In this document: in pieces, positions 13,901 to 56,902 of the stretch | Layout of the letters: each line of letters begins with the position of its first letter | Position numbering within the stretch: the first letter of the stretch is position 1 | Assembly (NCBI GenBank): GCA_002010065.2 | Contig: MTMD02000002.1 | Span: 544,001 to 608,000, forward strand | Direction: 5' to 3' | Length of the DNA: 64,000 nucleotides | Source: Candidatus Pyrohabitans jungbluthii | GTDB taxonomy: Archaea; Hydrothermarchaeota; Hydrothermarchaeia; Hydrothermarchaeales; BMS3B | Notes under the pieces: generated by a model | Told to the model about the DNA's origin: nothing | Databases searched by the model: none | What the model saw: only the letters and a program-made list of their open reading frames with translations | Position numbers and translations under genes: made by a program

Positions 13901-16411
13901 GCTGCCGTATATAAAGTTACTGTAGATGAGGTTATTAAAACACGCCAGCACTTTTAATCCATAATCCTGGTTTCCTGTGATGTTGTTTGAGCTAATGGTA
14001 TTGCCGTGGCTTTTCTCCAGTGTTATGCCAAGGTAATTTTGCTCAACCTTTATATCCTGTATGCTCGAGCCGTTGGTGTTATACAGGTAGATTCCAGAGG
14101 CACCGCTTGCGTTTGCTCCCCTTATGGTGAACCCTGAGATATTTACAGCAGAGGTGTTGCTAATTAGCAGGGCATGCGCTGAGGGATCAGCGGCTACGAT
14201 AAATGTTGAAGTGTTCCCTCCGCCGATAAGGTTTATGCTCTTGTTCACGAATACGTTTTCAGTATAGGTGCCAGGGGCTACATACACCGTCTCTGCTGGT
14301 GTGGCATAATCTATGCCCGCCTGAATTGTAGGTACTTCCTCGGGCACTCTAATAACTGAGGCGTTTACCGTGAAGCTCACCGCTGAAGCATTTAGATTGC
14401 CCCAGCTGTCGTTGGCATACACAGTTAAGTTATGGAGACCATTGCTCAGGAAAGAGAGGTTAAGTAGCAGTGTGTTGCCAGCAAAGGGGGTGCTGTTATC
14501 TCCGTCGTCCACCGAGTACCATATAAAGGTGGTGCTCTCATCGGAGATACTAACGTTGAGTAGTGGTGTGTGGTCCCCCTGTACTGAGCCATTCGCTGGG
14601 GAATGTATTTGAATCTCTGGCGGAGCTATATCCACAGGATTTACCCTTACGGTGAAGTTCTCAAAGCTTGAGGTGTAGTTCTCGTTTCCTTCAAAGGTGG
14701 CATTGAAGTAAAAGACTCCGCTGGTGTTCATTTGTATGATAACCTCAAGGGGTGATGAGCCTGAAACCAGGACTTTGTCAACGCCATCGGAGTAGTTGGT
14801 AGTAACGGTGACATTTCCTGAGTCCGGCACCACCAAGACGGCTGTAAAGTTCAGGGTATCAAACTGGTTCACAACCGCATCGCTACGGGTACCATTTATG
14901 TAGAGGTGAACCGAGGAGTCAGCCTTTAAAACCTCAAGCGCTTGGGAAACACTTCCGCTGGTGTAGTTCTGTCCGCCTGAGGTGTTGAATACGTAAATGT
15001 AAACCCCCGCAGCTAAGGTTGAGATATCAGGGTTCGCCACTGGCGTGCCATTCCTGTATAAGGTGTATGTAACGTCCTCATCGCCTAAGTTGGTTTCCAT
15101 GCCGGTTATGTTCGTCTCGCTCCCGTAGGTAACGCTCCACCCTGGCGAAGCGGTTAGGTTGAGGGTAGGCGAGGCTTTGGAAACAGTGTAATAAAAGATG
15201 TCGGTGGCGTTGACCAGACCTTCGGTGTTGTTGGCATACATTCGCCACTGATAAACCCCTGCGGCAAGGGAGGGATAGGTGTAGGAGTAGGTTGACCCGG
15301 AGTAGCTGCTCACAGTGTAGTTGACCAAGCTTCCTGTGAAGTTGTGCTCTATTAACACGGTGTCAATTGCAGAATCCGGCTCGCTCCATGTTACATTGAA
15401 CTGGTAGGTTTGGGAAAAAGAGTAGCTAACAGGCGCTGGAGGCGAAGCTGAGGGGTTGCTCCAGAGGGGAGGAGTGGTGTCTGCAGGTGCTGCTATCTCA
15501 ATCGTCCTGGTCTCACTTACGTTGAGATTCCCTGCACTGTCATTAGCCCACACGCGATAGGTGTAATTCCCATTCGCCAGGTTGGTCTTGTTTATATACC
15601 AGTTCGTCCCGCTCCCGCTCATGCTCTCGTTGGTGCCGTTCCACTCTAACCAGGCTGTTCCAGGTTCGCTCAGAGTGACGTTTATGAAAGTGTATCTGCG
15701 GTCTGTTATTGTAGCTCCATCAGGGTCAGTTGGTGGGACGAAGGTTATAGTGGGGGGTGTATTGTCGGGCGGTTGCCACGGCCAGACCACTAGAGGGTAG
15801 GGGTCCTCGTTGTTGGAATCTATGATGTAGGAACTGTCGCAGATGTTGTCCCCGTCCGAGTCAGTGCAGTCAGTGTTCTTCTCCCACTTATTGCCCACAT
15901 TGTAGCCGTCGATGGTGGAGTACCAGGTGTTTGTAACTAAAAAAGTTAGAGAAATAGTTTCGTGATAATCTTCTTGGGTATTGTTGAGGTAGTTGTTGTA
16001 GTATGTAGCACCATTCCCGGTATTTTCAATACCATAGTAATTGGAGGATATATTATTTCCTGTTATCACAGCGCTGGACCCTACTTGAATTCCTCCCTCC
16101 CAGTCGGTTATGACGCAGTTTCTTACCGTAACATTGACCAAGTCGGTGGGTATAGAAATTCCTATACTATTAGAATTATCAGTCCCATCTATTCTGTAAC
16201 CCTGACAGTCAAGCACAACGTCACTTGCGGAGATAGTTATGCAGGTGGAAGCGTAAGAGTCGATTATGTCACCTATTAGATAGTAAACACCTGAAGTGTC
16301 AATGTTAACCCCACATGAACTAATCGTCGCAGCACTACCCTCTCCAACAAGGGCAACAAAAGCTACCACCAAGCACAGGAGGAGTTGTCTTATTTTTTCC
16401 ATGGCACCCAA
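10964..16411 (-). CDS. Large cell-surface glycoprotein: two NosD/CASH beta-helix regions, many Ig-like repeats, CGP-CTERM
   Basis: Signal peptide; beta-helix repeats with DxDGDxIxD motifs; repeated D(N/T)TPP...YTxxVxAxDxAGN units; C-terminal LCGP + TM + RR. Start may be the ATG at 16402. Confidence 0.88.
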   Translation of the reverse strand: MGAMEKIRQLLLCLVVAFVALVGEGSAATISSCGVNIDTSGVYYLIGDIIDSYASTCITISASDVVLDCQGYRIDGTDNSNSIGISIPTDLVNVTVRNCVITDWEGGIQVGSSAVITGNNISSNYYGIENTGNGATYYNNYLNNTQEDYHETISLTFLVTNTWYSTIDGYNVGNKWEKNTDCTDSDGDNICDSSYIIDSNNEDPYPLVVWPWQPPDNTPPTITFVPPTDPDGATITDRRYTFINVTLSEPGTAWLEWNGTNESMSGSGTNWYINKTNLANGNYTYRVWANDSAGNLNVSETRTIEIAAPADTTPPLWSNPSASPPAPVSYSFSQTYQFNVTWSEPDSAIDTVLIEHNFTGSLVNYTVSSYSGSTYSYTYPSLAAGVYQWRMYANNTEGLVNATDIFYYTVSKASPTLNLTASPGWSVTYGSETNITGMETNLGDEDVTYTLYRNGTPVANPDISTLAAGVYIYVFNTSGGQNYTSGSVSQALEVLKADSSVHLYINGTRSDAVVNQFDTLNFTAVLVVPDSGNVTVTTNYSDGVDKVLVSGSSPLEVIIQMNTSGVFYFNATFEGNENYTSSFENFTVRVNPVDIAPPEIQIHSPANGSVQGDHTPLLNVSISDESTTFIWYSVDDGDNSTPFAGNTLLLNLSFLSNGLHNLTVYANDSWGNLNASAVSFTVNASVIRVPEEVPTIQAGIDYATPAETVYVAPGTYTENVFVNKSINLIGGGNTSTFIVAADPSAHALLISNTSAVNISGFTIRGANASGASGIYLYNTNGSSIQDIKVEQNYLGITLEKSHGNTISSNNITGNQDYGLKVLACFNNLIYSNFIYGSVYDSGTNYWNSSTGGNFYSGYEGWDTDGDGIGEQPYNISGGTNIDYLPLTDRLDNQAPKFENPIASRTYLRTGDTITVTVEVYDAASGVDNSSVFILYENGTVLAQMHNISQSSFMAEITVDYLEGLHTYNFSARDVAGNVNSSQQLTIVVDNTPPTLHRETPRSEEIFNISSILFRLSIEENLSNFSYCDVYINGEKNLRLNFSNLPGNSSNQTYIELSEGVYTWYANCTDSAGNSKSSESWNFTVDLSAPSTSDDAPSEWQRSEFTVNLSCTDNLSGCNYTYYRIDNSSWQEGNQIFIDTEGNHTIEYYSVDRAGNAESIKHSFAALDVTPPRVENISISSEYLTTGASLWVNASIADLLSGVNTSSIKILNENGSPISTMVEVSPGAFGASFSIEYPEGSYTFNVSAKDRVGNENSTQSFTIIVDNTPPSVTVNPTIYPSGKSVAKPGDVITLNITAFDEKVDRVVVNASTIGAGIVLLSENNGFYINDSVVVGNITSGVYYLPVEVYDKAGNSNESEAIEVRVDSQAPYLQGVEPVNNYISTRAEVSFKFEAGDDVDETLAYRLIIDGGAQQYFGTFTNGSQVVKKVQLADGNHTWELVVNDLAQNVISTGVRNLTVITTLIKHHTIPHLAGGENYSTGVVNTLLGSYEVVFKAGNTTTGGNITVNISTSLPESVEENLTLPIFLNFSEDNSTWLSDMEYIILKIYYNQSDIPQDIKEESLRVARFTKEGWIRADCEVLACPAPLGNVTLFDSGVDTSSHYVWARVSGLSLWGVMGKQSNTGSSYEVSDGDGMSHRITILEVALPTKTIYPGDSVPIRVKLSSNYAEPGVEVYLENLPHGWSSPSFRGYILPGISEHLITLTIPTSATANKSYELVLVVKSWFDVERKPLNVFVSKYLEKAFKETTFNESEFAVAEMVDKTRQKGKGRIIMKKENIAHEDLEAGNKKYLCGPNFILLLAVILLYINRRFVKIFG

Positions 16412-18993
16412 GCCTTAAACAGAGCTAATACTACTATAGAGATTAAAATAACCAGGTTAGGCCCGCAGATGCCCTTCTTCTCTGGTGATTCTCCTTCTTC
16501 AACGATTTCCTCTTTGACAACCTCCTCTTTTTTCTCAGGTGGTTGAGAATAATCTTTACCGGAAGAGGCGGCTTTCTTCTTTGCCTCTTTCACCTGCTTT
16601 TCGCTGAACATCATAATTCCAAACTCTTCAAATGGAACAATGCTTCGGGTTTCCTGTACACTGTAGCCAGAGTTAGGGCTGCCTGAGATTGCGAAGAAAC
16701 CAAACCTATCGGTTTTCACAATAAAGTAAACATATTCGTAATCCTCTGAATAGGGCATGGTTTCAAGCTCTATCCAGACATTATCTTCTTTTATGTAACC
16801 CTTGATAGTATTAACGCTTACATCATTATTTTCCAGCCATGACTTTGCTATTCTGAATTTTATCTCTGCACTTGCAACATATGCATCAGGTTTATCAAAG
16901 TGTATTTTATAGTACCCATATACCTTTCCAGAAGGTTCCTCAAAAATGAAAGCTGGTTTTTCTTTGTGGGTATCCACACAGATCTTCGTATAGTACATAT
17001 CCTGGGCTCCAATAATGCCTATTGAAGCCACATCCGGCACTGCTTCGGGATCGAAAATCGCAGTGCCAGTGCTCCCAGCAAGTATCTTGGGAATTTCCAT
17101 ACAGTTCTCCGCAAGCCCGCCACCTCCACCGCCGCCCGCCGCTGGTGGAGGCGTCTCGCCCGGAGGTAGAGAAATCTCAGTAACGTTAATTGTCACCTCA
17201 TCGCTCGCCACGTTCCCTGCTGTATCGCTGGCTTCCAGTTTGTAGCTCCTCAGCCCCACACTGGAGGTATCAACAGACCATTCTATTGTGCTGCCGGATG
17301 CATAGACCCCACTAACTAAGAGGGTTTCGTTTAGATATATTCTGAAGTCTTTCGGGTGCTCCTCGGTAATTGTCCAAGTGATTGTTGTGGCGGTTCCCTG
17401 TTCAACTTCTGTTCCCGGACTAACGCTTCTGGTTATCTCAGGAGCCTCCAGATCTATCTCTATTGTTCTGCTCTCGCTGCTCCCCCAGTTTCCTGCGAGG
17501 TCTCTGCCATAAACCCTGTAGGTGTGTGTGCCGTGGGTAATCCCAGACTTTGTCCCAGACCAGCTATCCCCAGAGCCGCTCATCGAGATATTTTCTACTC
17601 CATCCCACTCCAGCAACGCCTCGCTCAAATCTTCGGTGGCGGTTATGGCAACTGTAATACTGGTGTCAGAAGTTACTGCTCTGTCCTGAGGCGTGGGTGA
17701 AACAAAGCTTATACTTGGTGGAGAGGTGTCAGGAAGCTCAACAGTAAAACTCACAGAAGCCTCGGCGATGTTGTTCGCCAAGTCGACGGCTATAATTTTA
17801 ATAGTGTGGCTACCCTCTGAGGCGTTGATGGTAATGGGCGGGCTGAAGGGCAGGTAGGCACCCCCATCTAGGGAGTAGAACCACCTTGCCACACCCTCGT
17901 CGGCGCTTACGTCGAGAGAAACCTCTGTGGAGGGGTATGTTATACTCTGGGGCGAGTTAATTGTTATCTGAGGCGGAGCTAGGTCCTTAAGTTCCTCTGG
18001 CGATGAAGTGGAATAGAGGGGTAGATTGTCACTTCCCAGAAGGCGGGTATAGGCATTGTAAGCAGAGTCTCCTATTCCATCGTTGTTGTTGTCGGTGCCG
18101 GTGTAGTCCCACCAGTAGTTGCCACCTATGTACTGCCCGCCGATGATATTTTCCCCCGAAGTTTTTGCGGTATTCCAGGTATTTGATGTATCTTCGCTTG
18201 CGGTGTTGTCCACGTATACGAAATTGTTGTAGAATAAGTTGTTTGAGGAGGAGGTTATAAAGATACCAACGGCATTCTCAACAGAAGAGTAGATAACATT
18301 GCTTTTAACAGTATTGGAGTTTGAAGAACTCTCCAAGACTATGCCGCCATTTGATACCCCTCCCTTTATATCGTTGCCTTCTATTGTATTGGAAGAGGAG
18401 GAGCGCAGGTATATTCCCATGGATGAGCTTCCTATAATGCCGTTGTTTTTTACAATGTTTCCATCGGAATTCTTTATTCTTAGGGCCTCTCTGCTGTAGA
18501 TAATCAAATTGTTTTCAACCGTCACGCTTGAAGCGTCTTCTAGCAGAATTGGATATGGGACTCCTATAAAAGCTGAATTTTTAATTGAAAATCCCTGCCC
18601 TGAAACTTTTATTCCAAATTTGGCTCCCTGGAAGACAAAATTTGACACCTCTGCGTTGTCTGCGGTTACTGTAATCAGCGTGTCAGTTGTCCTGGGTAAA
18701 AGTATGGGGTTGTTTTTACCTAGAAGCTTTAGACTCTTGGATAGAAAAATCCCAGCCTCTTCCTCATATATACCATCGCACACCACAATCGCGTCATTGT
18801 TCGCAGCCTCGGCAACCGCCTTTCTAATAGGATTTGGGTACTCGGAGGATGAGTAATAGCTATCTCCGTTTTCACAGGGGGCGGTCCCCTGGTAAACTAC
18901 CAGAGTTGCTGCATTTACTAAAGAAAAACTCAGCATTACAACAGCAAGCACCCACAGTTTCTCTGAATATCTATTCATTCCACAGTCCCTCAA
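16390..18993 (-). CDS. Cell-surface protein: NosD-like beta-helix, Ig-like domains, PGF-pre-PGF-like domain, CGP-CTERM
   Basis: GGNYW..Y.G.D.N.DGIGD; Ig repeats; PPPAAGGGGGGG linker; AEIKFRIAKSWL...FGFFAISG; KKGICGP + TM. Confidence 0.87.
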   Translation of the reverse strand: MRDCGMNRYSEKLWVLAVVMLSFSLVNAATLVVYQGTAPCENGDSYYSSSEYPNPIRKAVAEAANNDAIVVCDGIYEEEAGIFLSKSLKLLGKNNPILLPRTTDTLITVTADNAEVSNFVFQGAKFGIKVSGQGFSIKNSAFIGVPYPILLEDASSVTVENNLIIYSREALRIKNSDGNIVKNNGIIGSSSMGIYLRSSSSNTIEGNDIKGGVSNGGIVLESSSNSNTVKSNVIYSSVENAVGIFITSSSNNLFYNNFVYVDNTASEDTSNTWNTAKTSGENIIGGQYIGGNYWWDYTGTDNNNDGIGDSAYNAYTRLLGSDNLPLYSTSSPEELKDLAPPQITINSPQSITYPSTEVSLDVSADEGVARWFYSLDGGAYLPFSPPITINASEGSHTIKIIAVDLANNIAEASVSFTVELPDTSPPSISFVSPTPQDRAVTSDTSITVAITATEDLSEALLEWDGVENISMSGSGDSWSGTKSGITHGTHTYRVYGRDLAGNWGSSESRTIEIDLEAPEITRSVSPGTEVEQGTATTITWTITEEHPKDFRIYLNETLLVSGVYASGSTIEWSVDTSSVGLRSYKLEASDTAGNVASDEVTINVTEISLPPGETPPPAAGGGGGGGLAENCMEIPKILAGSTGTAIFDPEAVPDVASIGIIGAQDMYYTKICVDTHKEKPAFIFEEPSGKVYGYYKIHFDKPDAYVASAEIKFRIAKSWLENNDVSVNTIKGYIKEDNVWIELETMPYSEDYEYVYFIVKTDRFGFFAISGSPNSGYSVQETRSIVPFEEFGIMMFSEKQVKEAKKKAASSGKDYSQPPEKKEEVVKEEIVEEGESPEKKGICGPNLVILISIVVLALFKAWVPWKK

Positions 18994-19818: not shown

Positions 19819-21117
19819 CTAAGAGAAGCCCCACTTCCTCAGCTCTGCCTTCGCTTTCCTCCTTTTACCTTCTAATCTCGCTATCTTCTCCTCTGTCAGG
19901 GCGATGTAATCCTTAAGCTGCTTCTCAAGTTTTTCCACTTTCGCCAGCTCTATGCGTGACCTCTCATCGCTGCTCTCTCCAGAGAGTGAGTCTTTAAAAT
20001 CGTAATACTTCTCCAGGCACTTCTCCATTATTCTGCGCAGACTGAAGCCGCCTAGGAGAATCATGGCATCAACGCTCTTACTCTCGGGAGAGGTGATCAA
20101 GCTGGTGTACCTCAGAATCCCTCCTCGCCCGCCTGCCAGGTGCTTCACAGCCCACTCGCGGGAGATGTCCTCTAAATCTTCCTGGGTAATCTCACCCTTC
20201 AGCACCTTCTCTTCAGGGGCGATAACTATTATGTAGGCCATTGTGGCGGTGCCCTTGTCCAGGGGTACCATTGCGTTGTTGGAAGCGCTCTCTAGGATTG
20301 CGTCCAGGCTGAGCACATCTGGGTCATTCCCAAGGCTCAGGCAAGGGGTGAAATGGATTGTCCCTAAATTGCTGGGGAGCTGATAGTAGTCTGCGATATC
20401 TATCGTTGCCTTCGAGGCATAGGTGCTGGGCGCAATCAGCATGTGTATCGCCCTTATAATCTCCTCGTTTATCCTCTGGTAGCGCTCCTCCTTCTGCCCC
20501 CGCCCTAGGTCGAGAATATGCTCCACCTGTGAGTTGTCCACAAGGATTACCAACGCAGCGTTCTGCTCGCCGTTATAGCGCAACAACCTTGAGAGGCCAC
20601 AGATGGCGTTGAAATGCCTCTGCGGAGCCTCAAAGTCATAGGGAAAGATGCCCAGCGCTATGAAGTTGTTTATCCTCTCCATGCCGAAGCCAGGGTTCCT
20701 CCTAACTCTGTGGATGATGTAGGGTAGCGACCCGTTGCCTGTGCCTCCTCCCAGGGTAGCGATACCAAGGAGCACATCGCTGCTCCGAAGCCTTAAGCTT
20801 GCGATGTATCTTCGTATGTTCTCGTAATCCTCAATTGCTTCTCTTTCGCCAAGAACCCAGTTGTTACCCGCGCCGCTTGGAGCCCTGCCAAAAATGCAAA
20901 CCCGCTCGCGTTTTATCTTCTCGTACTTTTCCCTCAGCTCGGGGCTCTGCGCAAAGATGTGCTCCAGCGGCTTCTCGGGCTTAACGTCCGCCGGCGTTGT
21001 ATTGAGGAGAAGCACTCTATCGCCGATGCTCGGATTTTTATACTTCGCGTAGTAAAGAAAGGCTATGCGGTTTGCGCCCTGTCCGCTCGCTATTATACCC
21101 CATCTTGTAGCTTGCAT
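19819..21117 (-). CDS. Divergent tubulin/FtsZ-superfamily GTPase with tubulin-like motifs
   Basis: T1 SGQGANRI; T3 SGAGNNW..G; T4 TLGGGTGNG; FNA; LVDN; INEEI; T7 TIDIAD; C-terminal helical/coiled-coil extension. Confidence 0.9.
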   Translation of the reverse strand: MQATRWGIIASGQGANRIAFLYYAKYKNPSIGDRVLLLNTTPADVKPEKPLEHIFAQSPELREKYEKIKRERVCIFGRAPSGAGNNWVLGEREAIEDYENIRRYIASLRLRSSDVLLGIATLGGGTGNGSLPYIIHRVRRNPGFGMERINNFIALGIFPYDFEAPQRHFNAICGLSRLLRYNGEQNAALVILVDNSQVEHILDLGRGQKEERYQRINEEIIRAIHMLIAPSTYASKATIDIADYYQLPSNLGTIHFTPCLSLGNDPDVLSLDAILESASNNAMVPLDKGTATMAYIIVIAPEEKVLKGEITQEDLEDISREWAVKHLAGGRGGILRYTSLITSPESKSVDAMILLGGFSLRRIMEKCLEKYYDFKDSLSGESSDERSRIELAKVEKLEKQLKDYIALTEEKIARLEGKRRKAKAELRKWGFS

Positions 21118-21121
21118 GCTT

Positions 21122-22495
21122 TCAACCTTTGAGCTTTAATGTTTTCTTCTCAAATTTAACCTCTGGATGTGTTTCGCTATAGCGTTTGAGGAAATCCTCG
21201 GCATAGCGCACCTTGAGTTCCTCTGCACTCACCTCGCCATTCTCCCTGAGCTTCTGCTCTATAATCTTTTCTATCGCCGGGTAGTTTTTAGCTATCTTCA
21301 CAGTCTTATATCTGGTGTCAAATTCGCCAGATAGGGTCTTAAGCACATCAAGCGCTTCCTTTGAAAACTTGGAGAAATCCTTTCTGGGGTCAAGCTTTGA
21401 GACGTACCTCTCAACCCCCTTCCTTCTTACCCCAGCCACCTCCAGCTTTTTCAGCTCTTCTTCTAGGGCTACAATCTCCCTTGCGAGGGCTCTAGCAACC
21501 TCAAGCGTGAGCCTCTTTGCTTCTTCCCTGAGGGTGCTTAGTTCGCTGAGGTAGCCAGGGTCATCATAGCTCAGCACCTTCTCCCTAAGGCTTAAAACTG
21601 CGCGCTCCTCCTTTACAAAGTCCTCCTTGATAAACTTGAGAAGGCGCTCCAGGTAGCTAATTATCTCCTTCTTTTCCTGCAGGAAGGGCTTTGTAAGGTA
21701 GCTTGCAGCCTCGCTTCGCACCTTCTGAAGCTTGGGTATAACCTCTACGCTATGTCGGCGCTCCTTAACTATCTCAAGCTCCTTTCTCAGGTGAACAACC
21801 TCAGCAGAGATGCTTTCGGCTGTATCTAGGAGAAACTCCGCTTCGCTGATGCACTTCTGAATTATCTTCAGATATACCTCCTCGCTTCGTCTGCGCTTTT
21901 CAAGTAGCTCTCCCAGCGTAGCGGAGGGCATCTTCACTATTCGTCTCAGCTCTTCGTACTCCTCGCCCACAGAGAATCCGCTCTCAACCAAAGCTTTCGC
22001 GGCGCTGAGCAACTCTTCCATCCTCTTCGCTGCTGCTTCACCATAGCTCGCAGCAGCCAGCGACTCCAGGCTGCGAAGCTGCTGCTCAACTTTCCTGCTC
22101 TCCAGCTCAATCGCGGTGAGCGTCACCTTTTCAATTTTCTTCTCGTTTACCTCAAAGTCCTTCGTGAAGAATCCTTTTGATATAAGCTCCTTCCTTATCC
22201 TCTTCAAATCCCTCATAAAGGGCTCAATGTCGATAAACTCAGAGGCTTCTTTTATGTTATCTTCTATCTTATCCAGCGCACTCCTAATTTTGTTCAGAAT
22301 TTCAATTTTAAGAAGCATTACGGTCTTGTCGGTCTTGCTCTTCCACCAGGTGTAAATTAGGCTAGCAATGAGCACGGATACTATTACTCCAACCGCAAGG
22401 TAGGATACAAAGTTTATTCCAAATGTGAGGAGCAGGAACAAGCCTGCACCCAGCGTGGCAAGGACTACCAGGGCGGTTATCACATATTCGTTCAT
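21122..22495 (-). CDS. Membrane-anchored long coiled-coil protein
   Basis: Two N-terminal TM helices followed by about 400 aa of E/K/L-rich helical sequence; gaps of 2-4 nt to the flanking tubulin-like genes. Confidence 0.82.
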   Translation of the reverse strand: MNEYVITALVVLATLGAGLFLLLTFGINFVSYLAVGVIVSVLIASLIYTWWKSKTDKTVMLLKIEILNKIRSALDKIEDNIKEASEFIDIEPFMRDLKRIRKELISKGFFTKDFEVNEKKIEKVTLTAIELESRKVEQQLRSLESLAAASYGEAAAKRMEELLSAAKALVESGFSVGEEYEELRRIVKMPSATLGELLEKRRRSEEVYLKIIQKCISEAEFLLDTAESISAEVVHLRKELEIVKERRHSVEVIPKLQKVRSEAASYLTKPFLQEKKEIISYLERLLKFIKEDFVKEERAVLSLREKVLSYDDPGYLSELSTLREEAKRLTLEVARALAREIVALEEELKKLEVAGVRRKGVERYVSKLDPRKDFSKFSKEALDVLKTLSGEFDTRYKTVKIAKNYPAIEKIIEQKLRENGEVSAEELKVRYAEDFLKRYSETHPEVKFEKKTLKLKG

Positions 22496-22497
22496 TT

Positions 22498-23697
22498 TTA
22501 AGCCTCGCTCTCAAGGAAATCTTTCTCGTATTCCTCAAGTACGCGCAGGGAGATATCTTTGTACTGGCTTGCAAGCTGGCTCAACGTCTTCAGGCGAGAA
22601 ATCTGATTTGGGCGGTAGGTTAGCAACACAGTCGCCGTCGCTAGGTTGCGCTTTGTCAGGGCGACGCCGAAGTGGGTCTCTCCAAGGCGAGAGTGCTCCT
22701 CCATCACCTGCTTAGCCATGCTGGTGTTTATCCTGCCGCGCTTTGTCAGGTAAACAGGGGGGATGCGCAGCAGCACAAGGTTCTTCTCCGCGTGCTCTGG
22801 TCTAACGTCGGCGAGGGTGAGCTTCATGAAGCTCCTGTAGAGCAGGGAGATGACATCTATCTCCTTATACCCGCCGAAGGGGAAGATATAGTGCAGAAAG
22901 TTTCTCGTTCTCTCAGAAGCTCTGCCTAGGGCTGCGAAGCCAGGACGAGTGCGCTTTCCAAAGGAGAAGCTTGTCGCGGCTATCATGTCCTTGAGGTCAA
23001 TCACAGGAGCGTAGCCCTCGTACTGCGATGGGTCCACACGTTCTATCACAGTGCCTATGAGAATGTCCCGTATGCTCCTAGCAACGTACTCATTGTACCT
23101 CTGGAACAAGCTCTCGGCACTTTCTGCGTACGCAAGCTTCTGGTTGTCTACCAGAATCACAGAGTCCACGTGCTCTATGATCAGGTTTAAGCTTTCCACC
23201 GCATTTTTCGCTGTAAGACCGCCCTCATGCGTTGCTGGCAGCACAACTATGGCGATAACCGGAATTCTCATCTCCTTCAAAACGCTCGCAACCACAGGTC
23301 CAGCCCCACTCCCGGTGCCACCACCCAGAGCAAAGGCAACAAAAGCCACGGGCACGCCTATACCCGAGCCCTCCTCGCTCTCGATGCTTAACCTCTCCAC
23401 AATCGCCTCCTTCAGGTTGTCCCTGAAGCGCATGGCATCTTCCTCTGCCTTTGCGCGGTTCTTCCCGTAGCCCCCGCTCACAAAGTGCTCAAAGCCGTGG
23501 AGTGTGCCCGGGATGAACCCTCTATCCCTTGACATTCCAATCCAGTGCTCTCGCTTTATGTTTTTGAGTGTCTGCAGGTCTAGGGTAGCCGAGTTTATGG
23601 CTATGGGCACGGCTATTTTGAACATTATCTCATCATAAAAAGCAGCGTCTATTATTGCTCCGCCGCACTGTCCCACACCTATAAAAGCGTATGGCAT
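22498..23697 (-). CDS. CetZ-like tubulin/FtsZ-family GTPase
   Basis: Start set at ATG 23697 (GGTGA RBS). IGVGQCGG, AINSA..DL, GGYGKN, FALGGGTGSG, LPA..EG, KNA, LVDN, VIDLKD, GFAALG. Confidence 0.9.
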   Translation of the reverse strand: MPYAFIGVGQCGGAIIDAAFYDEIMFKIAVPIAINSATLDLQTLKNIKREHWIGMSRDRGFIPGTLHGFEHFVSGGYGKNRAKAEEDAMRFRDNLKEAIVERLSIESEEGSGIGVPVAFVAFALGGGTGSGAGPVVASVLKEMRIPVIAIVVLPATHEGGLTAKNAVESLNLIIEHVDSVILVDNQKLAYAESAESLFQRYNEYVARSIRDILIGTVIERVDPSQYEGYAPVIDLKDMIAATSFSFGKRTRPGFAALGRASERTRNFLHYIFPFGGYKEIDVISLLYRSFMKLTLADVRPEHAEKNLVLLRIPPVYLTKRGRINTSMAKQVMEEHSRLGETHFGVALTKRNLATATVLLTYRPNQISRLKTLSQLASQYKDISLRVLEEYEKDFLESEA

Positions 23698-23777
23698 GAT
23701 TTCACCAGCTTGCTCTGAGGTAACCTCGCTGTTCGCTTTTATATTTATTTCAAAGGTCAAATATAAAATATTATTGC
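23698..23777. promoter_or_regulatory. 80-bp divergent promoter between the tubulin operon and the surface-protein pair
   Basis: AT-rich, with TTTATATTTATTT and AAATATAAAATA TATA-like elements between head-to-head starts. Confidence 0.55.
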
Positions 23778-24728
23778 ATGGGCTCAAGGGTGCTTCTTCT
23801 CATTCTGTTCACGATTTCGTTGATTCCCAGTGTTCATTCTCTGGACTGTGGAGATGTCCTCGCGGAGCTTCGTGGCTTCACTTCGTCAGCCTTCGCTGCC
23901 TATCCAGAGCTTAGGCAGGTGAAGCAGGATACCTTGCTTCTGCTCTACTCCCAGCAACGCACAGCATGCGACATTCAGCTTTTGAACTTTGCCTCCTCTT
24001 CCATGGAGTATCTCAAAAGCATGGATGCCGCCTACCTTCTTGTAAGCAGCGCTGAGCTGGAGTCTCAGAGGGAGGGGGTGAAGAAGGCGATAGAGGCTGA
24101 GAGGTTTATCTCTGAGATGCGCTCAGATAGCACTGAGCTGGGAATCCTCGCTCAAGATGCGGTGCAAGAGGCTGAACAGGGGAGGGAGAACTTCCTACTT
24201 TCGCAGGCTCTGACCTTCGAGAGTAGGGCTGAGAAGGCTGAGAGCACAAGGGATAAGCTGGCAAACTTTGAGCTCGCCATAGCTTGCTACGAGGCGGCAG
24301 ACGCTCTTCAGGCGAATAGCTTGAAGGTCAGAAAGCAGAGCTTAGAGGAGAAGTACATAGCTGACATAGTGGCAGCGCAGGAGTACCTGAGCGAAGCAAT
24401 AGCTTTGCTCACGCGCGCAGAAAAGCTTGAGGTCGCCTTCCTCGGCTTTGTGGACGCGTACACCTTAGCAAGGGAAGCAAAGATGAGCCTTGTCAGGGCT
24501 AAAGAACTTTACCAGCTTCATCACGAGAAGGAGAAGCTGGCGGAGGTTGAGGAGGTCTCTATTAATGCTGAAGAAGTCTACTCCTCAACCAGAAAGAGGA
24601 TTCTGATGCTATTTGCCATTGTTTCTCTAACTCTCACCTCGCTTTCGGTGTACATCCACAGCATAATTCTAAGCTGGGAAAGGGATACCTATGACTGCTA
24701 TCTTGGTAACGAGCTTGTGGGGGCATAG
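23778..24728 (+). CDS. Single-pass membrane protein with alpha-helical ectodomain and short conserved cytoplasmic tail
   Basis: Signal peptide (VHS|LDC), Ala/Glu-rich helices, C-terminal TM, tail WERDTYDCYLGNELVGA. Confidence 0.8.
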   Translation: MGSRVLLLILFTISLIPSVHSLDCGDVLAELRGFTSSAFAAYPELRQVKQDTLLLLYSQQRTACDIQLLNFASSSMEYLKSMDAAYLLVSSAELESQREGVKKAIEAERFISEMRSDSTELGILAQDAVQEAEQGRENFLLSQALTFESRAEKAESTRDKLANFELAIACYEAADALQANSLKVRKQSLEEKYIADIVAAQEYLSEAIALLTRAEKLEVAFLGFVDAYTLAREAKMSLVRAKELYQLHHEKEKLAEVEEVSINAEEVYSSTRKRILMLFAIVSLTLTSLSVYIHSIILSWERDTYDCYLGNELVGA

Positions 24729-24729
24729 C

Positions 24730-26760
24730 ATGCGCTTCTTGAGTATTCTTCTTGTTACGCTCTTACTCTTCGCCTCACCTGTGAGCGCCCAGGTTACGGC
24801 AAGCTTTGACTATGATGAGGTGGACTTTTACTTCGACAAGCCCAAAAATGAGGTCTCCTATTTTGAGGAGAACTTAACCTTGGAGTTCTTCAATGCAGAC
24901 AATGAGAGCGCAGCGATACTCTCTGGTCTTGAGGCAACGCTCTCTGGCGAGGCGAAGGATAAGGGCATGAGTGTTGTCCTCGAGAAGAGCTATCTTCGGG
25001 TTGAACCCAACGATAAATCTTACCTCACCATTTCCTTCCGTGCACCCCCAAGCGTGCCTGAGGGCAGGTATGAAGCGAAGCTTGAGGTTAAGGGCAACTA
25101 CACTTACATTACCAAGCAGGGTGTCCACACCCTACTCCATGAATTCTACATCACAGTAAATGTTGACCACCCACCTGCGACGCTTGCGGCGAGCTGGGAC
25201 CTTGCGGAATGGGGAAAGCTCAGAGCAGGGCAGAGCTTTGAGCGCACCCTCACCGTGAGGGAGGTTTATGGGTACGCTGGGGCAAGCAACGTTACGCTCT
25301 ATCTCTCAAGAACAGGACCCGTGAACCTCACCTACACCTCGAGCTTAGGGGATATACCCGCAGGAGGGTCAAAGAGCATTAAGGTTAAGGTTCAGGTACC
25401 TGAGAGGTACCTTAGGCCGGGAGACTACAAAGTTGTTCCAAAGATTGTGAAAGATTACAAAACGCAGGTGTCAACGCTTGAGCAGGCTAACTATACCATC
25501 CCAAAGCCAGAGATGGCGATTTCCACCACTAAGTTAAATTTCGGCAGGCTCACCTTTGAGGTTGGCAAGGATACAGCGACAGCAAGCATAACTGTCAGCG
25601 AGGTTGGTGGCTACACTCCAATCGAGGGTTTGAGCATCTCTCTGGTTAAGGGGGAGGAGGGGTGGGTGGGCTACACCCAGGTTAACTACATTCCCCCAGG
25701 GAGGAATGCAACAGTAAACTTTACCCTTATCCTGCCCCCGGATGCAAGCCTCGGAAAAAAAAGCTGGATTTTTGAAATAACTACTGTGCATGCCGGGAGT
25801 GTGGAGATTCTTGGGGAGGCTATAGTGTATTTCCCAGGTTTGGATGAGGCGGAGCGTTCCCTCGCTGCCCTGCCCTCGCTGCCCTCTCATCCAGAGGTCA
25901 AAGAGGCGGTGCAGAACCTGCGGGAGATGATAGCAGCCTCTAGGGATGTAACCGAACTCAGGGAGATAGCAATGGTCATGTCGGTGTACAGCGGCGTTAG
26001 CTCTTTTGTGAATATCCTAGCAGGTGCTGAAGGTAAGCCCCTTGAGGAACGCGTTGAGAGCATTATACTTGCAAAGAGGAGTCTCAACAGAGCAAAGATA
26101 GGAAGCGAGAACCTGGAGGACAGGAACTTAAAGAAGTACGCTATACCCGCGGTTGAAGCCTTAGAGAACGTGTGGAAAAGGGAGGCAGGCTCAGCAGCAG
26201 AGGCTCTTGAGGCTGTGGTAAAGCAGAAGGAGGAAAGCGATTACCGTGGCGCAGCGCTGGACTACAAGAGGCTTAAGACGCTTTATTCGCTGCTCGGTGA
26301 AGCTGAGAGTGCGAAGGAGTACGCCTCAAAGCAGGAGGAGATGGAGCGTGCCTATTTCAACTCCCTATCTGAGGCGATGTCCCTCCTCAGGCTTGCGGAG
26401 GAAAATGTAAGCGCAGCTAGAAGGCTCACCTTCAATATAAAGGAAGCCTCCTTTGTTATCAACCCCTTCCATTACGAGGCGGTTATGGCTTACTACGATG
26501 ATGCTCTCTCCAGCGTTGAGAGGGCAAGGCTTCTTCTTGACAGGGCGGGCGAAGATGAGGAGGCGAAGCTGCTTCAGAGGAGGATGAAAGAGCTCAAAGA
26601 CAGGAAGCGCACCATTGAGAGAACCTTCAGGGTCTACCTTGCCTTCCTCACCCTCTTCTTCCTGTGGTTTGTGGCGAGGGTGACTCTGGGTCTGCTGCGC
26701 TGGATTCGTGACTCGGAGGCTCTTGCAGAGGGCGACGTGCTCCTTGGGGCCGAGGGTTAA
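24730..26760 (+). CDS. Single-pass membrane protein: about 3 Ig-like domains, helical stalk, TM and conserved tail
   Basis: Start set at ATG 24730 (signal peptide VSA|Q). Ig-like repeats (PEGRY, PGDY, V.EV.GY), helical region, TM, tail WIRDSEALAEGDVLLGAEG. Confidence 0.82.
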   Translation: MRFLSILLVTLLLFASPVSAQVTASFDYDEVDFYFDKPKNEVSYFEENLTLEFFNADNESAAILSGLEATLSGEAKDKGMSVVLEKSYLRVEPNDKSYLTISFRAPPSVPEGRYEAKLEVKGNYTYITKQGVHTLLHEFYITVNVDHPPATLAASWDLAEWGKLRAGQSFERTLTVREVYGYAGASNVTLYLSRTGPVNLTYTSSLGDIPAGGSKSIKVKVQVPERYLRPGDYKVVPKIVKDYKTQVSTLEQANYTIPKPEMAISTTKLNFGRLTFEVGKDTATASITVSEVGGYTPIEGLSISLVKGEEGWVGYTQVNYIPPGRNATVNFTLILPPDASLGKKSWIFEITTVHAGSVEILGEAIVYFPGLDEAERSLAALPSLPSHPEVKEAVQNLREMIAASRDVTELREIAMVMSVYSGVSSFVNILAGAEGKPLEERVESIILAKRSLNRAKIGSENLEDRNLKKYAIPAVEALENVWKREAGSAAEALEAVVKQKEESDYRGAALDYKRLKTLYSLLGEAESAKEYASKQEEMERAYFNSLSEAMSLLRLAEENVSAARRLTFNIKEASFVINPFHYEAVMAYYDDALSSVERARLLLDRAGEDEEAKLLQRRMKELKDRKRTIERTFRVYLAFLTLFFLWFVARVTLGLLRWIRDSEALAEGDVLLGAEG

Positions 26761-29300
26761 ATTATGCTTGCTTTGAGCCTTGAGAGCACCTCATCGTTGC
26801 GAAGCATGTCCTCTATGCACAGGAGGAGGTAATGGGAAAGGGCGAAAAATGCCCGAGCTTCGAGGTGGCTCCTCCTCCCGCCCTTCTCAAAGAGCTTCCT
26901 TGAAATCTGCCAGAGGGAAGCAAGAGGATAGGTGGAAATCTCCTTTATTAGTGAGGTGATTTTCCTGTCCACTTCGAAAATCTCCCTCTCAAGCTCGTCC
27001 TTTGTCAGCTTTCCAAGAAGGAAGGCCACTGTTTCTTCTAAGGGTAGCGGAGGTGCACCGCAAGCTTCTGCTTTCTGCTTTGGCGAAGCTTGGTAGAGGG
27101 CGACATTCTTCCAGTCCTGCATGGCTTCGCAGAGCATTGGAACAGCCTTTTCTGCTGCACTTATAAGGGCATCCACGTGTGCCTTAGAATCACTAAATTC
27201 AGATGTCAGGGCAAGGACTTCGATGCCATCTATAATACCGTAGCCTATGCTTCTGAAGTAAGCTGGCAGGCATGGGTCGTGCTCGGCGACACGCTCATAG
27301 GCTTCGTCAAGGGAGCGGCGCAGCTCTTCAAGGCGCTCTTCTTCCTCCCTGCCAAGGCGAAGCGCAGGCTCAAGCTCCACCTCAAGCCTGTCTACTACGC
27401 TCTCTGGCGTGAATTTCTTGAATGCTGGTTTAAAGCCCTTCTTCTCCACAGAAATCGTCGTAGCTTCGGGCTTAATCCTGAGGGTGGCGAAGCCTTCTGC
27501 GTCGGTTGTAGCCTCAATGTTTCCGCTCTTTACCAGTGCTCCGGAGAGAGGCAGGCTGCTCTTTGAGCTTCTGACTCTTACCCGCAGGGTGCGAAGAGCC
27601 TCGCGAGGTTCTGTAACCTGTGCCTGAGGCTTAGCTGGCTTGCTCCTTTTAAGTAGGAAAAACAGTAGCGCAGCAAAAATTGCGAGGGCTGCAATCACAG
27701 CGGCTTTATTCCTGCTTGGCAGGCTTGTCCACCTCTCCTCGAAGAGAGGCACTGCCAAAATTTTTTCTCCAGATATTATGAAAATTCGGCTCGCGTCAGG
27801 GGAGATTGTGGCATACTTAACGCCCTTCTCAGGATAGTACCGCCATATAAGCCTGCCTTGTTCCGCGTCGTACAGTTCAACGCTCTCTTGAGAAGCTGCA
27901 AGCAGGTAACCCCTGGCTGAGTGGAGTGAACTCATGTTCTGCTCCAGGGTTATATTCCAGAGGTGCTCACCTTTAGCAAAGGCGTGGATCTCATCCTTGA
28001 GCAGAGCGAAGACCACATCCTCATCCATGGTGACAGCAAGAATTGTTTTTTCAAAGCTTGTATTCCACACCAAAGCGCCGTCGTAGGTGTATAGATAAAG
28101 GGTGTCGTTCCCTGCAATGGCTATGCTCTCATTGGATATCGCTAAGCTAGCTGGCTTGAACTCAAGCTGCTTTGTCCAGAGCAGCGCGCCCGCGGTGTTG
28201 AAGAGGTACAGAGTATTACCGGCAATCACGCTTGAGCCCCGAGGGGAAGCGGCGAGAAGCTCAGTATTCTTATCAATGCTCGCGTTCCACACCTTCTGAG
28301 TGCCCCTGTACATGGAGAGTAGGTTTTTCTCAGCCACTAAGGAGTACTCCTCCGAGGCTGCAATCATGGGTGAAGTTTTCAGTGTTATAGAGGCGAGCAT
28401 CTCTCCCGTGGGCTTGAGGATGTACACCTCATTTCCCGCGACGGCGATAAGGTTCTGCGAGGTGGCGTGAAGCTGGGCAGGTGAGCGTGGAAGCAGTATC
28501 TCATAGAACTCAAGCCCCGCCTGAGAGAGGTTTACAAGGCGAACCCTTCTCGAAGCCTTGAAGCTCTGATTTCCCAGCGATACCACAACCTCTATTGGAT
28601 ACTCACCAGGGGGCAAGCCCGAGGTGTTCCAGTTGTAGGGCAGAGTCTCCGCAGTCTGGGTGCCGTTGATAAGCACAGCCACTGTCGCATTCTCTGGCAC
28701 AATCGTGGCATTTATTGCAATGCTCTCGCCGGTGGTGAAAACCTCTCCAGGTTTGGGGGAAGTTATTTCCGCATAGAGCGCAGGTGTGGTGTTGAGTACC
28801 TTAACCTCTGCGAAGGCAAAGGCTACGGCACAGCGCCCAAGGGAGGAGCACTGCTGGGGTGAGCACAGGTTGCTCGCCTCGCTGTTTGAGGCAAAGCTGG
28901 TGTCGAAGGCAAACACAGCAGTGAGCCTGTAGCTTCCCGGCTTTCGTGGAGCAAAGAAGCTGAACTCCACTGAAACGCTCTGGTTGGGAAGGGCGCTACC
29001 TGAGTATAGCTTGGCTACCTCAGCTTTGCTCCAGTTTCCGAAGAGGTTGACCCTCGCTTCGCCGGTAGCGTAGTTTCCAAACTTCCATGAGAGAACACCC
29101 CTCACATGCTGCCCCGGAGCGACGCTTATGCTGCTCTGAACCCCCTTTGCATTAGGGTCAAGGTCAAAGGAGGAGAGGGTTATCACTTCGAGGTTTTTTC
29201 CAGGGGTGGCGTAGTAGACATCCTTGGGGCATAGAGAATAAGCCTGGGGAAGAGCAAAGGCTATGAGGATGAGAAGAACAACCTTCCTCAGCATGCACAT
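26757..29300 (-). CDS. Single-pass protein: Ig-like and PQQ-type beta-propeller ectodomain; cytoplasmic beta-sandwich and helical domain
   Basis: Signal peptide; PGSY/PGEY Ig units; repeated G.L.W propeller blades; TM AAVIAALAIFAALLFFLL followed by KRSK; PLSGALV...TTDAEG...KKGF; about 190-aa helical C-terminal domain. Confidence 0.8.
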   Translation of the reverse strand: MCMLRKVVLLILIAFALPQAYSLCPKDVYYATPGKNLEVITLSSFDLDPNAKGVQSSISVAPGQHVRGVLSWKFGNYATGEARVNLFGNWSKAEVAKLYSGSALPNQSVSVEFSFFAPRKPGSYRLTAVFAFDTSFASNSEASNLCSPQQCSSLGRCAVAFAFAEVKVLNTTPALYAEITSPKPGEVFTTGESIAINATIVPENATVAVLINGTQTAETLPYNWNTSGLPPGEYPIEVVVSLGNQSFKASRRVRLVNLSQAGLEFYEILLPRSPAQLHATSQNLIAVAGNEVYILKPTGEMLASITLKTSPMIAASEEYSLVAEKNLLSMYRGTQKVWNASIDKNTELLAASPRGSSVIAGNTLYLFNTAGALLWTKQLEFKPASLAISNESIAIAGNDTLYLYTYDGALVWNTSFEKTILAVTMDEDVVFALLKDEIHAFAKGEHLWNITLEQNMSSLHSARGYLLAASQESVELYDAEQGRLIWRYYPEKGVKYATISPDASRIFIISGEKILAVPLFEERWTSLPSRNKAAVIAALAIFAALLFFLLKRSKPAKPQAQVTEPREALRTLRVRVRSSKSSLPLSGALVKSGNIEATTDAEGFATLRIKPEATTISVEKKGFKPAFKKFTPESVVDRLEVELEPALRLGREEEERLEELRRSLDEAYERVAEHDPCLPAYFRSIGYGIIDGIEVLALTSEFSDSKAHVDALISAAEKAVPMLCEAMQDWKNVALYQASPKQKAEACGAPPLPLEETVAFLLGKLTKDELEREIFEVDRKITSLIKEISTYPLASLWQISRKLFEKGGRRSHLEARAFFALSHYLLLCIEDMLRNDEVLSRLKASII

Positions 29301-55742: not shown

Positions 55743-56664
55743 TCCACTCAATTTCCCTCTTCAGCCCCTCTTTTATATCGACGCGTGGATTATAACCAAG
55801 CTCCTTCTTGGCTTTGGAAATATCTGCATAGGTGTCTCTTACGTCGCCTTTTTGTTTTTCAATGTATTTTACTTTCGCTTTCAGTCCAGTAAGCTCTTCC
55901 AGAATCCTTATAACTTCGTTGATTGATATCCTGTTGCCACCACCAATGTTGAATACTTCACCGCTTTTTGCATATTTTACCGCAAGAATGTTTGCTTCGA
56001 CGATGTCCCGAACATATGTGAAGTCCCTCGTTTGCCTTCCATCACCATATACTACAATTTCGTCTTGCGTGAGAATCGCCTTTATGAATCTGTGAAATGC
56101 CATGTCTGGACGCTGTCTCTCACCGTAAACCGTAAAGTAGCGCAGAGATACTGTGGGCACGCCAAAGTTTTTCCAGTAAAGGTAGCAGAGGTGCTCACCT
56201 GCCAGCTTGCTCACGCCATAGGGGGAAACCGGACGTGGATTGTCGGTCTCACGCATGGGCAGAGAATCTACGTCGCCGTAAACTGAAGAGGAAGAGGCAT
56301 ATACGAACTTTTTTATATTAGCATCCTTTACAGCCTCCAGCAGCGCCTGCGTTGCAAGAATGTTGCTGTCAGTGTATATCTTAAAGTTTTCTCCCCAGCT
56401 CGCTCTCACCCCAGCCTGCGCAGCCTGGTGAAAAACGTAATCAGCGCCCTCAACTATCTCCTTAAGATTAAGGTTGTTAATGTCCTCCTCGATGAGCTGA
56501 AATCCCTCTGCTTCCAACAAATTTTCTATGTTCTTCTCCTTTATCTCTTTCGGGTAGTAATCTGAGAAGTTATCTATGCCCACGACCTCATGGCCTTCTT
56601 TTAGAAGCCTCTCAGCAAGGTGCGATCCGATAAAGCCTGCGCAGCCTGTTACTATTGATTTCAT
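55720..56664 (-). CDS. NAD-dependent sugar epimerase (UDP-glucuronate/glucose 4-epimerase-like)
   Basis: TGCAGFIGS, HQAAQAGVR, ASSSSVYG, PYGVSK, RYFTVYG.RQRPDMA. Confidence 0.92.
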   Translation of the reverse strand: MKSIVTGCAGFIGSHLAERLLKEGHEVVGIDNFSDYYPKEIKEKNIENLLEAEGFQLIEEDINNLNLKEIVEGADYVFHQAAQAGVRASWGENFKIYTDSNILATQALLEAVKDANIKKFVYASSSSVYGDVDSLPMRETDNPRPVSPYGVSKLAGEHLCYLYWKNFGVPTVSLRYFTVYGERQRPDMAFHRFIKAILTQDEIVVYGDGRQTRDFTYVRDIVEANILAVKYAKSGEVFNIGGGNRISINEVIRILEELTGLKAKVKYIEKQKGDVRDTYADISKAKKELGYNPRVDIKEGLKREIEWIKSYYNI

Positions 56665-56686
56665 GGTTATACCACAATTTGTCGTG

Positions 56687-56893
56687 CTATAGATACCCCA
56701 AACCTCTCAGCCTCTCTTTGACCTGCTCCTCTTCTTCTTCGCTGTAGACCACCTCTGCCTCTTCTTCCTCATCTTTCAGTATTTCTTCGAGGACAAAATT
56801 CACGTACTCTTCCACAGAGCTGAATTCTTCGCTTTCGTCGACACGCTTCTTTATCTCTTCATATATCTCATCCTTTATCTCGATTTTTGCCAC
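56687..56893 (-). CDS. Small RHH/CopG-like protein with ERLRGLGYL tail
   Basis: KIEIKDEIYE.I....EFSSVEEYV.FVL (RHH pattern), acidic linker, VKERLRGLGYL. Confidence 0.82.
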   Translation of the reverse strand: MAKIEIKDEIYEEIKKRVDESEEFSSVEEYVNFVLEEILKDEEEEAEVVYSEEEEEQVKERLRGLGYL

Positions 56894-56902
56894 GCTACCA
56901 CC

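Follow-up and report, generated by a model that had tools for sequence, protein, structure and literature searches.

A conserved archaeal gene module joining two divergent tubulin-superfamily GTPases to a membrane-hairpin protein and single-pass proteins

What kind of system is encoded where two dissimilar tubulin-superfamily genes are packed together with genes for membrane proteins? The question is raised by a 64,000-nucleotide stretch of the genome of Candidatus Pyrohabitans jungbluthii (contig MTMD02000002.1, positions 544,001 to 608,000; hereafter the window), in which the genes of two tubulin-superfamily GTPases (A and B) enclose that of a membrane-hairpin protein (P0002) and adjoin those of two paralogous single-pass proteins (P0004 and P0005) and a single-pass propeller protein (P0006) (Table 1). 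The preliminary description of this locus, made from the window itself, had proposed that the six genes form one module and would therefore be expected together in other genomes. Their order is indeed kept in 20 of 20 related loci, and all six cluster again in Halobacteria and Methanoperedens; I treat them as one conserved module. With a probability of about one half, I consider that it encodes tubulin-like filaments that are tethered to the membrane and coupled to transmembrane proteins of the envelope, a system whose role would be to organise envelope-spanning proteins.

Forty genomes of relatives from the same order, labelled Hydrothermarchaeota, were surveyed, and 20 loci with a B orthologue were fetched. 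The order P0006-P0005-P0004<->A-P0002-B (the double arrow marks the divergent pair) does not vary among the 20 as far as each contig reaches, and every gene missing among P0002 to P0005 coincides with a contig end. Eleven loci continue for 1.5 kb or more past P0005, and P0006 is present in nine of them (it is absent in L026 and L034). Because flanking genes are common only within a genus (four of the 20 loci), the conserved block is the six genes themselves, an arrangement far beyond chance. Orthologues of A within the order are 67-95% identical. Full-length B orthologues occur in 23 of the 40 relatives, one of them split over two contigs, and the cluster is present across most families of the order. 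A profile of P0002 finds one gene in exactly these 23 genomes and none in the other 17, eight of which are at least 95% complete, and a profile of the P0006 cytoplasmic domain finds 20 of the 23 together with one weak partial match among the 17. Since kin are not independent, this pattern of presence and absence points to a small number of joint losses (in a genus of the same family and in one whole family) and not to 17 separate ones.

Judging from source names, the closest homologues of B belong to Candidatus Pyrohabitans and Hydrothermarchaeota; remoter ones come from Micrarchaeota, metagenome-assembled genomes named 'Euryarchaeota archaeon', and Halobacteria, where one is called 'FtsZ family protein, noncanonical'. 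A scan of species-representative genomes for B gave 80 loci, and the hidden Markov models (HMMs) used across phyla were built from proteins of this order only. All six families lie on a single strand in 22 of the 25 listed halobacterial loci, together with a third tubulin-like gene and further genes; two loci (L113 and L115) have all except P0006, and one (L119) has five, A being expected upstream of the contig start. All six families are likewise clustered in Methanoperedens (L092). In Micrarchaeota, A, P0002 and B are accompanied in five of five loci by a 285-aa protein that corresponds to the transmembrane (TM) and cytoplasmic part of P0006 only, and A is itself extended C-terminally by a P0006-type beta-sandwich. 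Across phyla the families thus co-cluster with rearranged order and strand.

A laboratory species has such a cluster too. Plasmid PHS2 of Halobacterium salinarum R1 (NC_010369.1) carries all six families contiguously from OE_RS12075 to OE_RS12020, matching the order-specific HMMs at E 1.8e-78 (A), 6e-29 (P0002), 4.2e-82 (B), 4.9e-11 (P0006), 5.5e-13 (P0004) and 2.8e-41 (P0005); B and four accessory proteins are annotated there as 'hypothetical protein'. A 'cetZ5 (VNG6260G)' gene is growth-phase regulated in H. salinarum according to the available part of Darnell et al. (2020). A link between the PHS2 cluster and this gene was considered and set aside as unconfirmed; a strain-comparison paper makes no mention of FtsZ, CetZ or tubulin. 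The third tubulin-like protein of haloarchaeal clusters (L098:1589-3193 and L161:4366-5988) has about 530 aa and an N-terminal extension, heads the cluster, and in the tree is placed close to the B clade with a very long branch of its own; in Haloarcula it is followed by a 687-aa zinc-ribbon protein.

The families also co-occur where they are not neighbours. Whole-genome searches of ANME-2 and Altarchaeum found, away from B, one homologue of P0002 and at least one full P0006 cytoplasmic domain in each of five genomes, and a homologue of A and one of P0004 in each of the five genomes searched for them; with B this makes five families that are dispersed, and searches aimed at P0005 did not extend to Micrarchaeota or Altarchaeum. 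Two ANME-2 genomes keep P0004<->A as a divergent pair, as in the window, and in one of them a weaker profile match (A5) lies in a 667-aa open reading frame (ORF) beside P0004, which is possibly P0005. In one ANME-2 genome (L085:3821-7201) the solitary B gene lies about 2.8 kb from the gene of a 1127-aa S-layer protein (Pfam S-layer, E 1.3e-181) with a dockerin-like end, and a gene for the beta-subunit of acetyl-CoA synthase/carbon monoxide dehydrogenase stands between the two.

What, then, are A and B? A matches the Pfam Tubulin family (PF00091, the GTPase domain) at 85.3 bits against a cut-off of 33, and B is borderline, at 32.5 bits by hmmscan and 34.3 bits, above the cut-off, on the open frame. 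Neither scores as an FtsZ: the NCBIfam FtsZ equivalog model TIGR00065 (cut-off 295.2) gives 79.6 bits for A and 38 for B, and the FtsZ of Haloarcula, used as a control, gives 421.8. The homology of A to B is visible only with profiles; it is not significant by BLASTP, and profile-to-profile comparison (hhalign) gives a probability of 98.8% (E 6.5e-17) over 286 columns spanning both domains. The solved structure closest to A, with a full-length alignment at 73.6 bits, is 4b46, which a figure legend identifies as Haloferax volcanii CetZ1 (Brown and Duggin, 2023); the canonical CetZ of the same P. jungbluthii genome reaches 369.8 bits against it. Among solved structures B comes closest to FtsZ 1w5e (36 bits), while tubulins reach 19-25 bits; it is about equally distant from FtsZ and from tubulins. 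Similarity of A and B to tubulins is weak (19-29 bits).

B has a GAGNNW-type T3, a GGGTGNGS T4 and an IDIAD T7, and its C-terminal helix ends in WGF; A has GQCGG at T1, GGGTGSG at T4, IDLKD at T7 and a YEKDF C-terminal tail. Invariant positions are G12, G14, G82, G84, N85, G123-G127, D240 and D243 in the B family (15 aligned sequences) and G125-G129, G131, D234 and D237 in the A family (19 sequences); the glycine run and the aspartate pair I take, from the general fold, to be T4 and T7. Positions of T1, T3, T4 (GGGTG) and T7 (DxxD) are invariant or nearly so in both families, and because the T1/T3/T4 glycines and the two T7 aspartates are kept in this way, A and B are both likely to be active, polymerisation-competent GTPases. 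The T3 (GAGNNW) and T7-H8 stretches of B presumably resemble those of tubulin.

Two co-inherited paralogous superfamily genes in one operon recall alpha/beta-tubulin and BtubA/B, but in the module a membrane-protein gene separates A from B and both keep the acidic T7. Beta-tubulin is the partner that lacks the catalytic T7 acidic residue, and a loss of this heterodimer type is seen in neither family, each of which keeps two invariant aspartates. For the two-subunit filament put forward in the preliminary description, what the sequences show is the co-inheritance of A and B. A complex prediction for A, B and two GTP scored 0.00 with the verdict 'no answer' and counts neither way.

To place the two GTPases, I use a maximum-likelihood tree to which six genomes contribute 39 tubulin-superfamily ORFs (support as ultrafast bootstrap/SH-like approximate likelihood ratio test). 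Seven partial duplicates and a fused Altarchaeum ORF of 832 aa are excluded, and the tree sets A and B against CetZ and FtsZ and not against eukaryotic tubulin, BtubA/B, TubZ and artubulin. Clades are recovered for B (100/99), A (98/99), CetZ (84/86) and FtsZ (100/100), with deeper relations among these groups poorly supported (46/81). The CetZ clade contains the Haloarcula CetZ1 orthologue (706 bits to 4b46) and the genome's own CetZ, and A and B each form a separate clade outside it. Membership of both GTPases in well-described CetZ clades, which the preliminary description had named as an outcome that would count against it, did not turn up, since both lie outside the canonical CetZ and FtsZ clades. 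Its label 'CetZ-like' suits A only in that CetZ1 is the closest solved structure; the 73.6 bits are far below the 369.8 of the genome's own CetZ, and A stands outside the CetZ clade. Inside both the A clade and the B clade the six organisms branch in one and the same order, a match that fits co-inheritance.

These are not the only superfamily members of the genome. About 85 kb upstream of the window (G000:C2:456030-459544) three more genes (L003, L004 and L006) form a tight cluster, one encoding the canonical CetZ with 369.8 bits to 4b46 and two encoding divergent paralogues; the trio occurs also in Hydrothermarchaeum profundi. The genome total is seven, including two genes in the FtsZ clade. 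In Altarchaeum (G044:C60:8710-11749; L124/L132) there are three tandem FtsZ-domain matches, two of them within one frame of about 837 aa that is an apparent double-FtsZ fusion and was kept out of the tree.

Divergent tubulin-like paralogues of Halobacterota and Altiarchaeota have been described before as the 'Halo.Tub' and CetZ-like groups, with several copies in quasi-tandem and coiled-coil-rich neighbours of unknown function (Santana-Molina et al., 2023), and patchy 'non-canonical TSF proteins' (TSF, tubulin superfamily) have also been noted (Brown and Duggin, 2023). Matched by these descriptions, A and B probably belong to the 'Halo.Tub'/'non-canonical TSF' families. The available text of both papers defines for these groups no accessory families, six-part module or function, and no spread to Hydrothermarchaeota or Micrarchaeota, and the available part of an Asgard tubulin paper of 2026 does not treat them. 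Searches of the literature on tubulin, CetZ, non-canonical terms and Halobacterium gene names found no paper describing the module. The earlier impression that this is not a characterised system therefore survives for the module and not for the GTPases, whose paralogues had probably already been noticed. CetZ proteins (CetZ1, 4B46; CetZ2, 4B45) are likewise archaeal tubulin-superfamily GTPases, 4b46 being the nearest solved to A, and have been linked to cell shape and to motility (Brown and Duggin, 2023); their published neighbourhoods, as far as the available text gives them, hold cofactor/nucleotide biosynthesis, type IV pili and a sugar epimerase, unlike the module.

P0002, encoded between the two GTPases, has two N-terminal TM-like hydrophobic segments (5-23 and 33-51). 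Its AlphaFold2 model (mean predicted local distance difference test score, pLDDT, 89.7) shows a predicted cytoplasmic, all-helical region of about 350 aa and a small C-terminal winged-helix-like domain. The family has no Pfam or NCBIfam match, and Foldseek against the PDB gives none below E 0.3, with TM-scores of at most 0.18. A protein atlas search returns only unnamed archaeal clusters and, with a low TM-score, a resemblance of the C-terminus to winged-helix domains of SelB, a lead only. A word-indexed homologue search with the P0002 alignment returns 10 hits, all 'hypothetical protein', and hhalign finds no relation between P0002 and the P0006 cytoplasmic domain. The tethers of FtsZ (SepF, ZipA and EzrA-type helical anchors) are membrane anchors, and P0002, which is likewise membrane-anchored, largely helical and encoded next to a superfamily GTPase, may by analogy be compared with them; it differs in having no Pfam, NCBIfam or PDB match and in accompanying GTPases that lie far under the FtsZ model cut-off.

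P0006 bears out the single-pass propeller protein with a large cytoplasmic domain that had been read from the window. It has a signal peptide, an immunoglobulin (Ig)-like domain, a PQQ-type beta-propeller ectodomain, one TM helix (532-550) and a cytoplasmic part (residues 556-847; 26760-27635) made of a transthyretin-like beta-sandwich and a nine-helix domain, with Pfam matches to PQQ_2, Big_7 and CarboxypepD_reg. N-x-S/T sequons are distributed accordingly, 15 in 508 ectodomain residues and 0 in 292 cytoplasmic ones. In the AlphaFold2 model of residues 556-847 (pLDDT 91.3) the beta-sandwich matches known folds by Foldseek against the PDB, and the nine-helix part has no PDB match. The portion kept across phyla is the cytoplasmic one (HMM positions ~531-843). 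An exhaustive profile search with this domain was swamped by proteins with multiple sandwich repeats, and only full-domain hits were used: 71 chosen by eye from the best 150 representatives, 53 of which were scanned for domains. Among the full-domain hits of these best 150, the domain is always at the extreme C-terminus of proteins of 267-1163 aa. The scan of 53 finds the sandwich in 43, a PQQ propeller in five and Ig-like domains in a few, and an enzymatic or signalling domain in none.

P0004 has a signal-like N-terminus, a helical domain of about 250 aa and one C-terminal TM helix (hydrophobic segments 5-23 and 275-293), followed by a conserved cytoplasmic tail of about 20 aa, SWERDTYDCYLGNELVGA. 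No Pfam family matches it significantly, DUF4730 (E 0.039) staying below its cut-off. P0005 has a signal peptide, Ig-like beta domains (NPCBM_assoc/NEW3 and weak fn3-like Pfam matches), a helical domain homologous to P0004, one TM helix and a conserved tail, RWIRDSEALAEGDVLLGAEG; eight N-x-S/T sequons lie in its beta-rich ectodomain (residues 21-385, 365 aa). The two single-pass proteins had been called paralogues, and profile-to-profile this holds for P0004 and the C-terminal half of P0005 (hhalign, 98.1%, E 1.1e-13, 275 columns); by BLASTP (E 0.66) the paralogy is invisible. No relation of P0004 to the P0006 cytoplasmic domain is found by hhalign. The tails share a motif (aromatic, R/Q-D, five to seven residues, hydrophobic, G, D/N, acidic or F, then two hydrophobics) whose core, G-x-x-hydrophobic-hydrophobic, is present in 22 of 34 tails of the P0004 family and 32 of 36 of the P0005 family, over a range that extends from this order to Halobacteria; in many tails without the core, D replaces G. 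An internal TM helix at P0005 413-431, which would put its helical domain inside, was rejected, this segment being hydrophobic in only two of the 18 orthologues inspected. Because no internal TM helix is conserved, the helical regions of P0004 and P0005 are taken to lie outside with the Ig domains; this placement is soft because sequons are nearly absent from them.

Some otherwise full-length matches to these families carry in-frame stops. In one sister genus (G006, G008 and G010) each P0006 cytoplasmic-domain match has one in-frame TAG or TGA, and two ANME-2 homologues of P0004 (G047:C85:33692-34645 and G046:C79:3569-4519) have one in-frame TGA each. These could be recoding, pseudogenes or split genes.

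At the locus itself, ORF calling reproduces all the coordinates and spacings given earlier. Gaps of 4 nt (B/P0002) and 2 nt (P0002/A) separate the genes of the minus-strand operon, P0004 and P0005 are 1 nt apart, and P0005 and P0006 converge with an overlap of 4 nt. The 80-nt spacer between A and P0004 holds two AT-rich, TATA-like boxes at about 23737-23750 and 23759-23772 and is a presumed bidirectional promoter region.

Table 1. Features of the six-gene module, in positions of the window.
Feature	Position	Strand	Length	Basis
Tubulin-superfamily GTPase B (P0001)	19819-21117	-	432 aa	ORF calling
2-TM helical membrane-hairpin protein (P0002)	21122-22495	-	457 aa	ORF calling
Tubulin-superfamily GTPase A (P0003)	22498-23697	-	399 aa	ATG at 23697, start MPYAF
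Divergent intergenic spacer	23698-23777	no strand	80 nt	read from sequence
P0004, single-pass protein	23778-24728	+	316 aa	ORF calling
P0005, single-pass protein	24730-26760	+	676 aa	ORF calling
P0006, single-pass propeller protein	26757-29300	-	847 aa	ORF calling

Just downstream of the module (10964-18993, minus strand) lie the genes of two very large predicted surface proteins (1815 aa and 867 aa) whose repeats are of the NosD/right-handed beta-helix and Big_13 Ig-like kinds, and between these and the module lies an archaemetzincin-like M54 peptidase gene. NosD-type matches adjoin the module in only two of the 20 related loci, both of the same genus. Elsewhere in the window, positions 56001-62000 have a G+C fraction of 0.33-0.41 (about 0.5 in the rest) and a strongly negative GC skew, and might be an island of foreign genes or of genes for surface glycans.

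How might these parts work together? The parts kept across phyla are cytoplasmic or juxtamembrane: the two GTPases, P0002, the sandwich and helical domain of P0006, and the tails of P0004 and P0005. A, which is CetZ-related, and the deeply divergent B would both most likely form GTP-dependent filaments, separate or joint, at the inner face of the cytoplasmic membrane. Their candidate binding partners are P0002, anchored by its hairpin, and the cytoplasmic beta-sandwich/helical domain of P0006, which together would hold the filaments at the membrane, and the tails of about 20 residues of P0004 and P0005, which may dock onto the filament assembly. The filament would in this way position or cluster proteins with helical, Ig-like and propeller parts outside the membrane. 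Cytoskeleton and envelope would thereby be linked, so that the envelope could be shaped or organised.

Several observations pull the other way. P0006 was not found in three of the 23 B-holding relatives, and its ectodomain is variable, which makes the 'surface' half of the system facultative. The ectodomains had been pictured earlier as receptors or adhesins; their single-pass, surface-type architecture is borne out, but the importance given to them is not, as they are the least conserved parts. The outside position of the helical regions is weakened by their sequon counts (0 in 248 aa of P0004 and 1 in 240 aa of P0005) and by basic residues on both sides of the TM helices. With full catalytic motifs in both A and B, a heteropolymer does not seem to be required by the sequences. 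B is solitary, even with second-round HMMs, in 23 of 24 ANME-2/Methanosarcinales loci (the exception, L079, has matches to A and P0004 about 7 kb downstream of B) and in four of four Altiarchaeales loci, with housekeeping genes as its neighbours in ANME-2 and Altarchaeum. Haloarchaeal clusters add the third tubulin-like gene, a zinc-ribbon protein and more genes, which makes the unit larger and variable, and the Halobacterium, Natrinema and Halobaculum copies are borne by large plasmids. Finally, the support comes from sequence and predicted structure.

A bolder form of the same proposal can be put forward only tentatively. The module would be an ancient, dedicated trans-envelope cytoskeleton, in which the filament of two co-evolving GTPases is mechanically coupled to the outside through TM linkers of its own. 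These linkers (the hairpin tether, the sandwich/helical adaptor domain and the conserved tail peptide) would make it a prokaryotic counterpart of cytoskeleton-to-matrix linkage. Such a cytoskeleton would be older than the split of the euryarchaeal and DPANN lineages that carry it, or would have been exchanged as a complete unit.

Among other explanations, an unlikely one that nonetheless survives best is a membrane-remodelling machine or an auxiliary division or budding machine, in which A/B filaments constrict or deform the membrane, P0002 is the tether, and the single-pass proteins remodel the envelope. In FtsZ systems constriction is driven by tethered tubulin-superfamily filaments, P0002 is long, helical and anchored in the membrane, and the small-genome Micrarchaeota keep just the cytoplasmic and membrane core. 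PF13809, which I take to be FtsZl-1, matches neither A nor B at E up to 0.1. FtsZl-1 and FtsZl-2 are divergent FtsZ-tubulin families for which multicomponent membrane-remodelling systems have been predicted from gene context (Makarova and Koonin, 2010), a precedent for this explanation; nothing of that context as given in the available text (a von Willebrand A protein, a distinct GTPase and an OmpA-family protein) appears among the six proteins or their neighbours. Elsewhere the genome moreover encodes a canonical CetZ and two FtsZ-clade proteins, the cluster and its surroundings within the window contain no division gene such as those of ESCRT or SepF, and conserved tails on proteins with large outside domains fit coupling better than constriction alone.

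Transmembrane signalling is less probable again. Here the variable propeller and Ig-like ectodomains would respond to a cue from outside, and A/B assembly would be switched by the P0006 cytoplasmic domain together with the P0004 and P0005 tails. A variable outside domain, a single TM helix and a conserved inside domain, which in the full-domain hits among the best 150 is invariably C-terminal, is an architecture that suits a receptor, but the six proteins and the 53 family members scanned contain no known signalling domain, and the micrarchaeal versions dispense with any ectodomain.

Slightly poorer still are the prospects of the module as cargo of mobile elements, whether for TubZ-like DNA segregation or as a plasmid-borne apparatus for cell contact or transfer, spread horizontally. 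Five plasmid records hold a B homologue (one Natrinema, three Halobaculum and PHS2 of H. salinarum R1), locus L104 is plasmid p1 of Natrinema sp. 74, and the distribution across phyla is patchy. The five plasmids are all typed non-mobilizable, however, and no integrase, replication or relaxase gene stands beside the cluster within the window. In this order the cluster is chromosomal, flanked by housekeeping genes and spread over 23 of 40 relatives in most families, and the parts found in ANME-2 and Altarchaeum are scattered between housekeeping genes. The comparison with TubZRC, which likewise has a tubulin-like GTPase and a winged-helix element, is also imperfect: the winged-helix-like domain that ends P0002 belongs to a membrane protein and not to a small centromere binder, the module has no small DNA-binding TubR-like gene, and its other parts are membrane or envelope proteins. 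That the six genes share no function and are neighbours by descent only is hardly credible, for it has nothing beyond the sharing of gene order by kin in its favour, and against it stand co-clustering at phylum level with rearranged order and strand, matching presence and absence, and co-occurrence even when the genes are dispersed.

The filament system coupled to transmembrane envelope proteins thus remains the reading that I favour, and its interest lies in the parts. How archaeal tubulin-like filaments are attached to the membrane and envelope is largely unknown, and the molecular mechanism of CetZ is, in the available text of Brown and Duggin (2023), not yet understood. The module supplies a definite set of components: two new GTPase families, a putative dedicated tether that resembles no solved fold, a new adaptor-like domain in the cytoplasm and a conserved tail peptide, co-inherited in at least five phylum- or class-level lineages. 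The tubulin-like motif blocks of B bear on how the superfamily diversified near the tubulin and CetZ branches. Because its thermophile members offer proteins suited to structural work, and the PHS2 copy lies in H. salinarum R1, for which genetics and imaging exist, a prokaryotic, tubulin-type coupling of cytoskeleton to cell surface would be directly testable.

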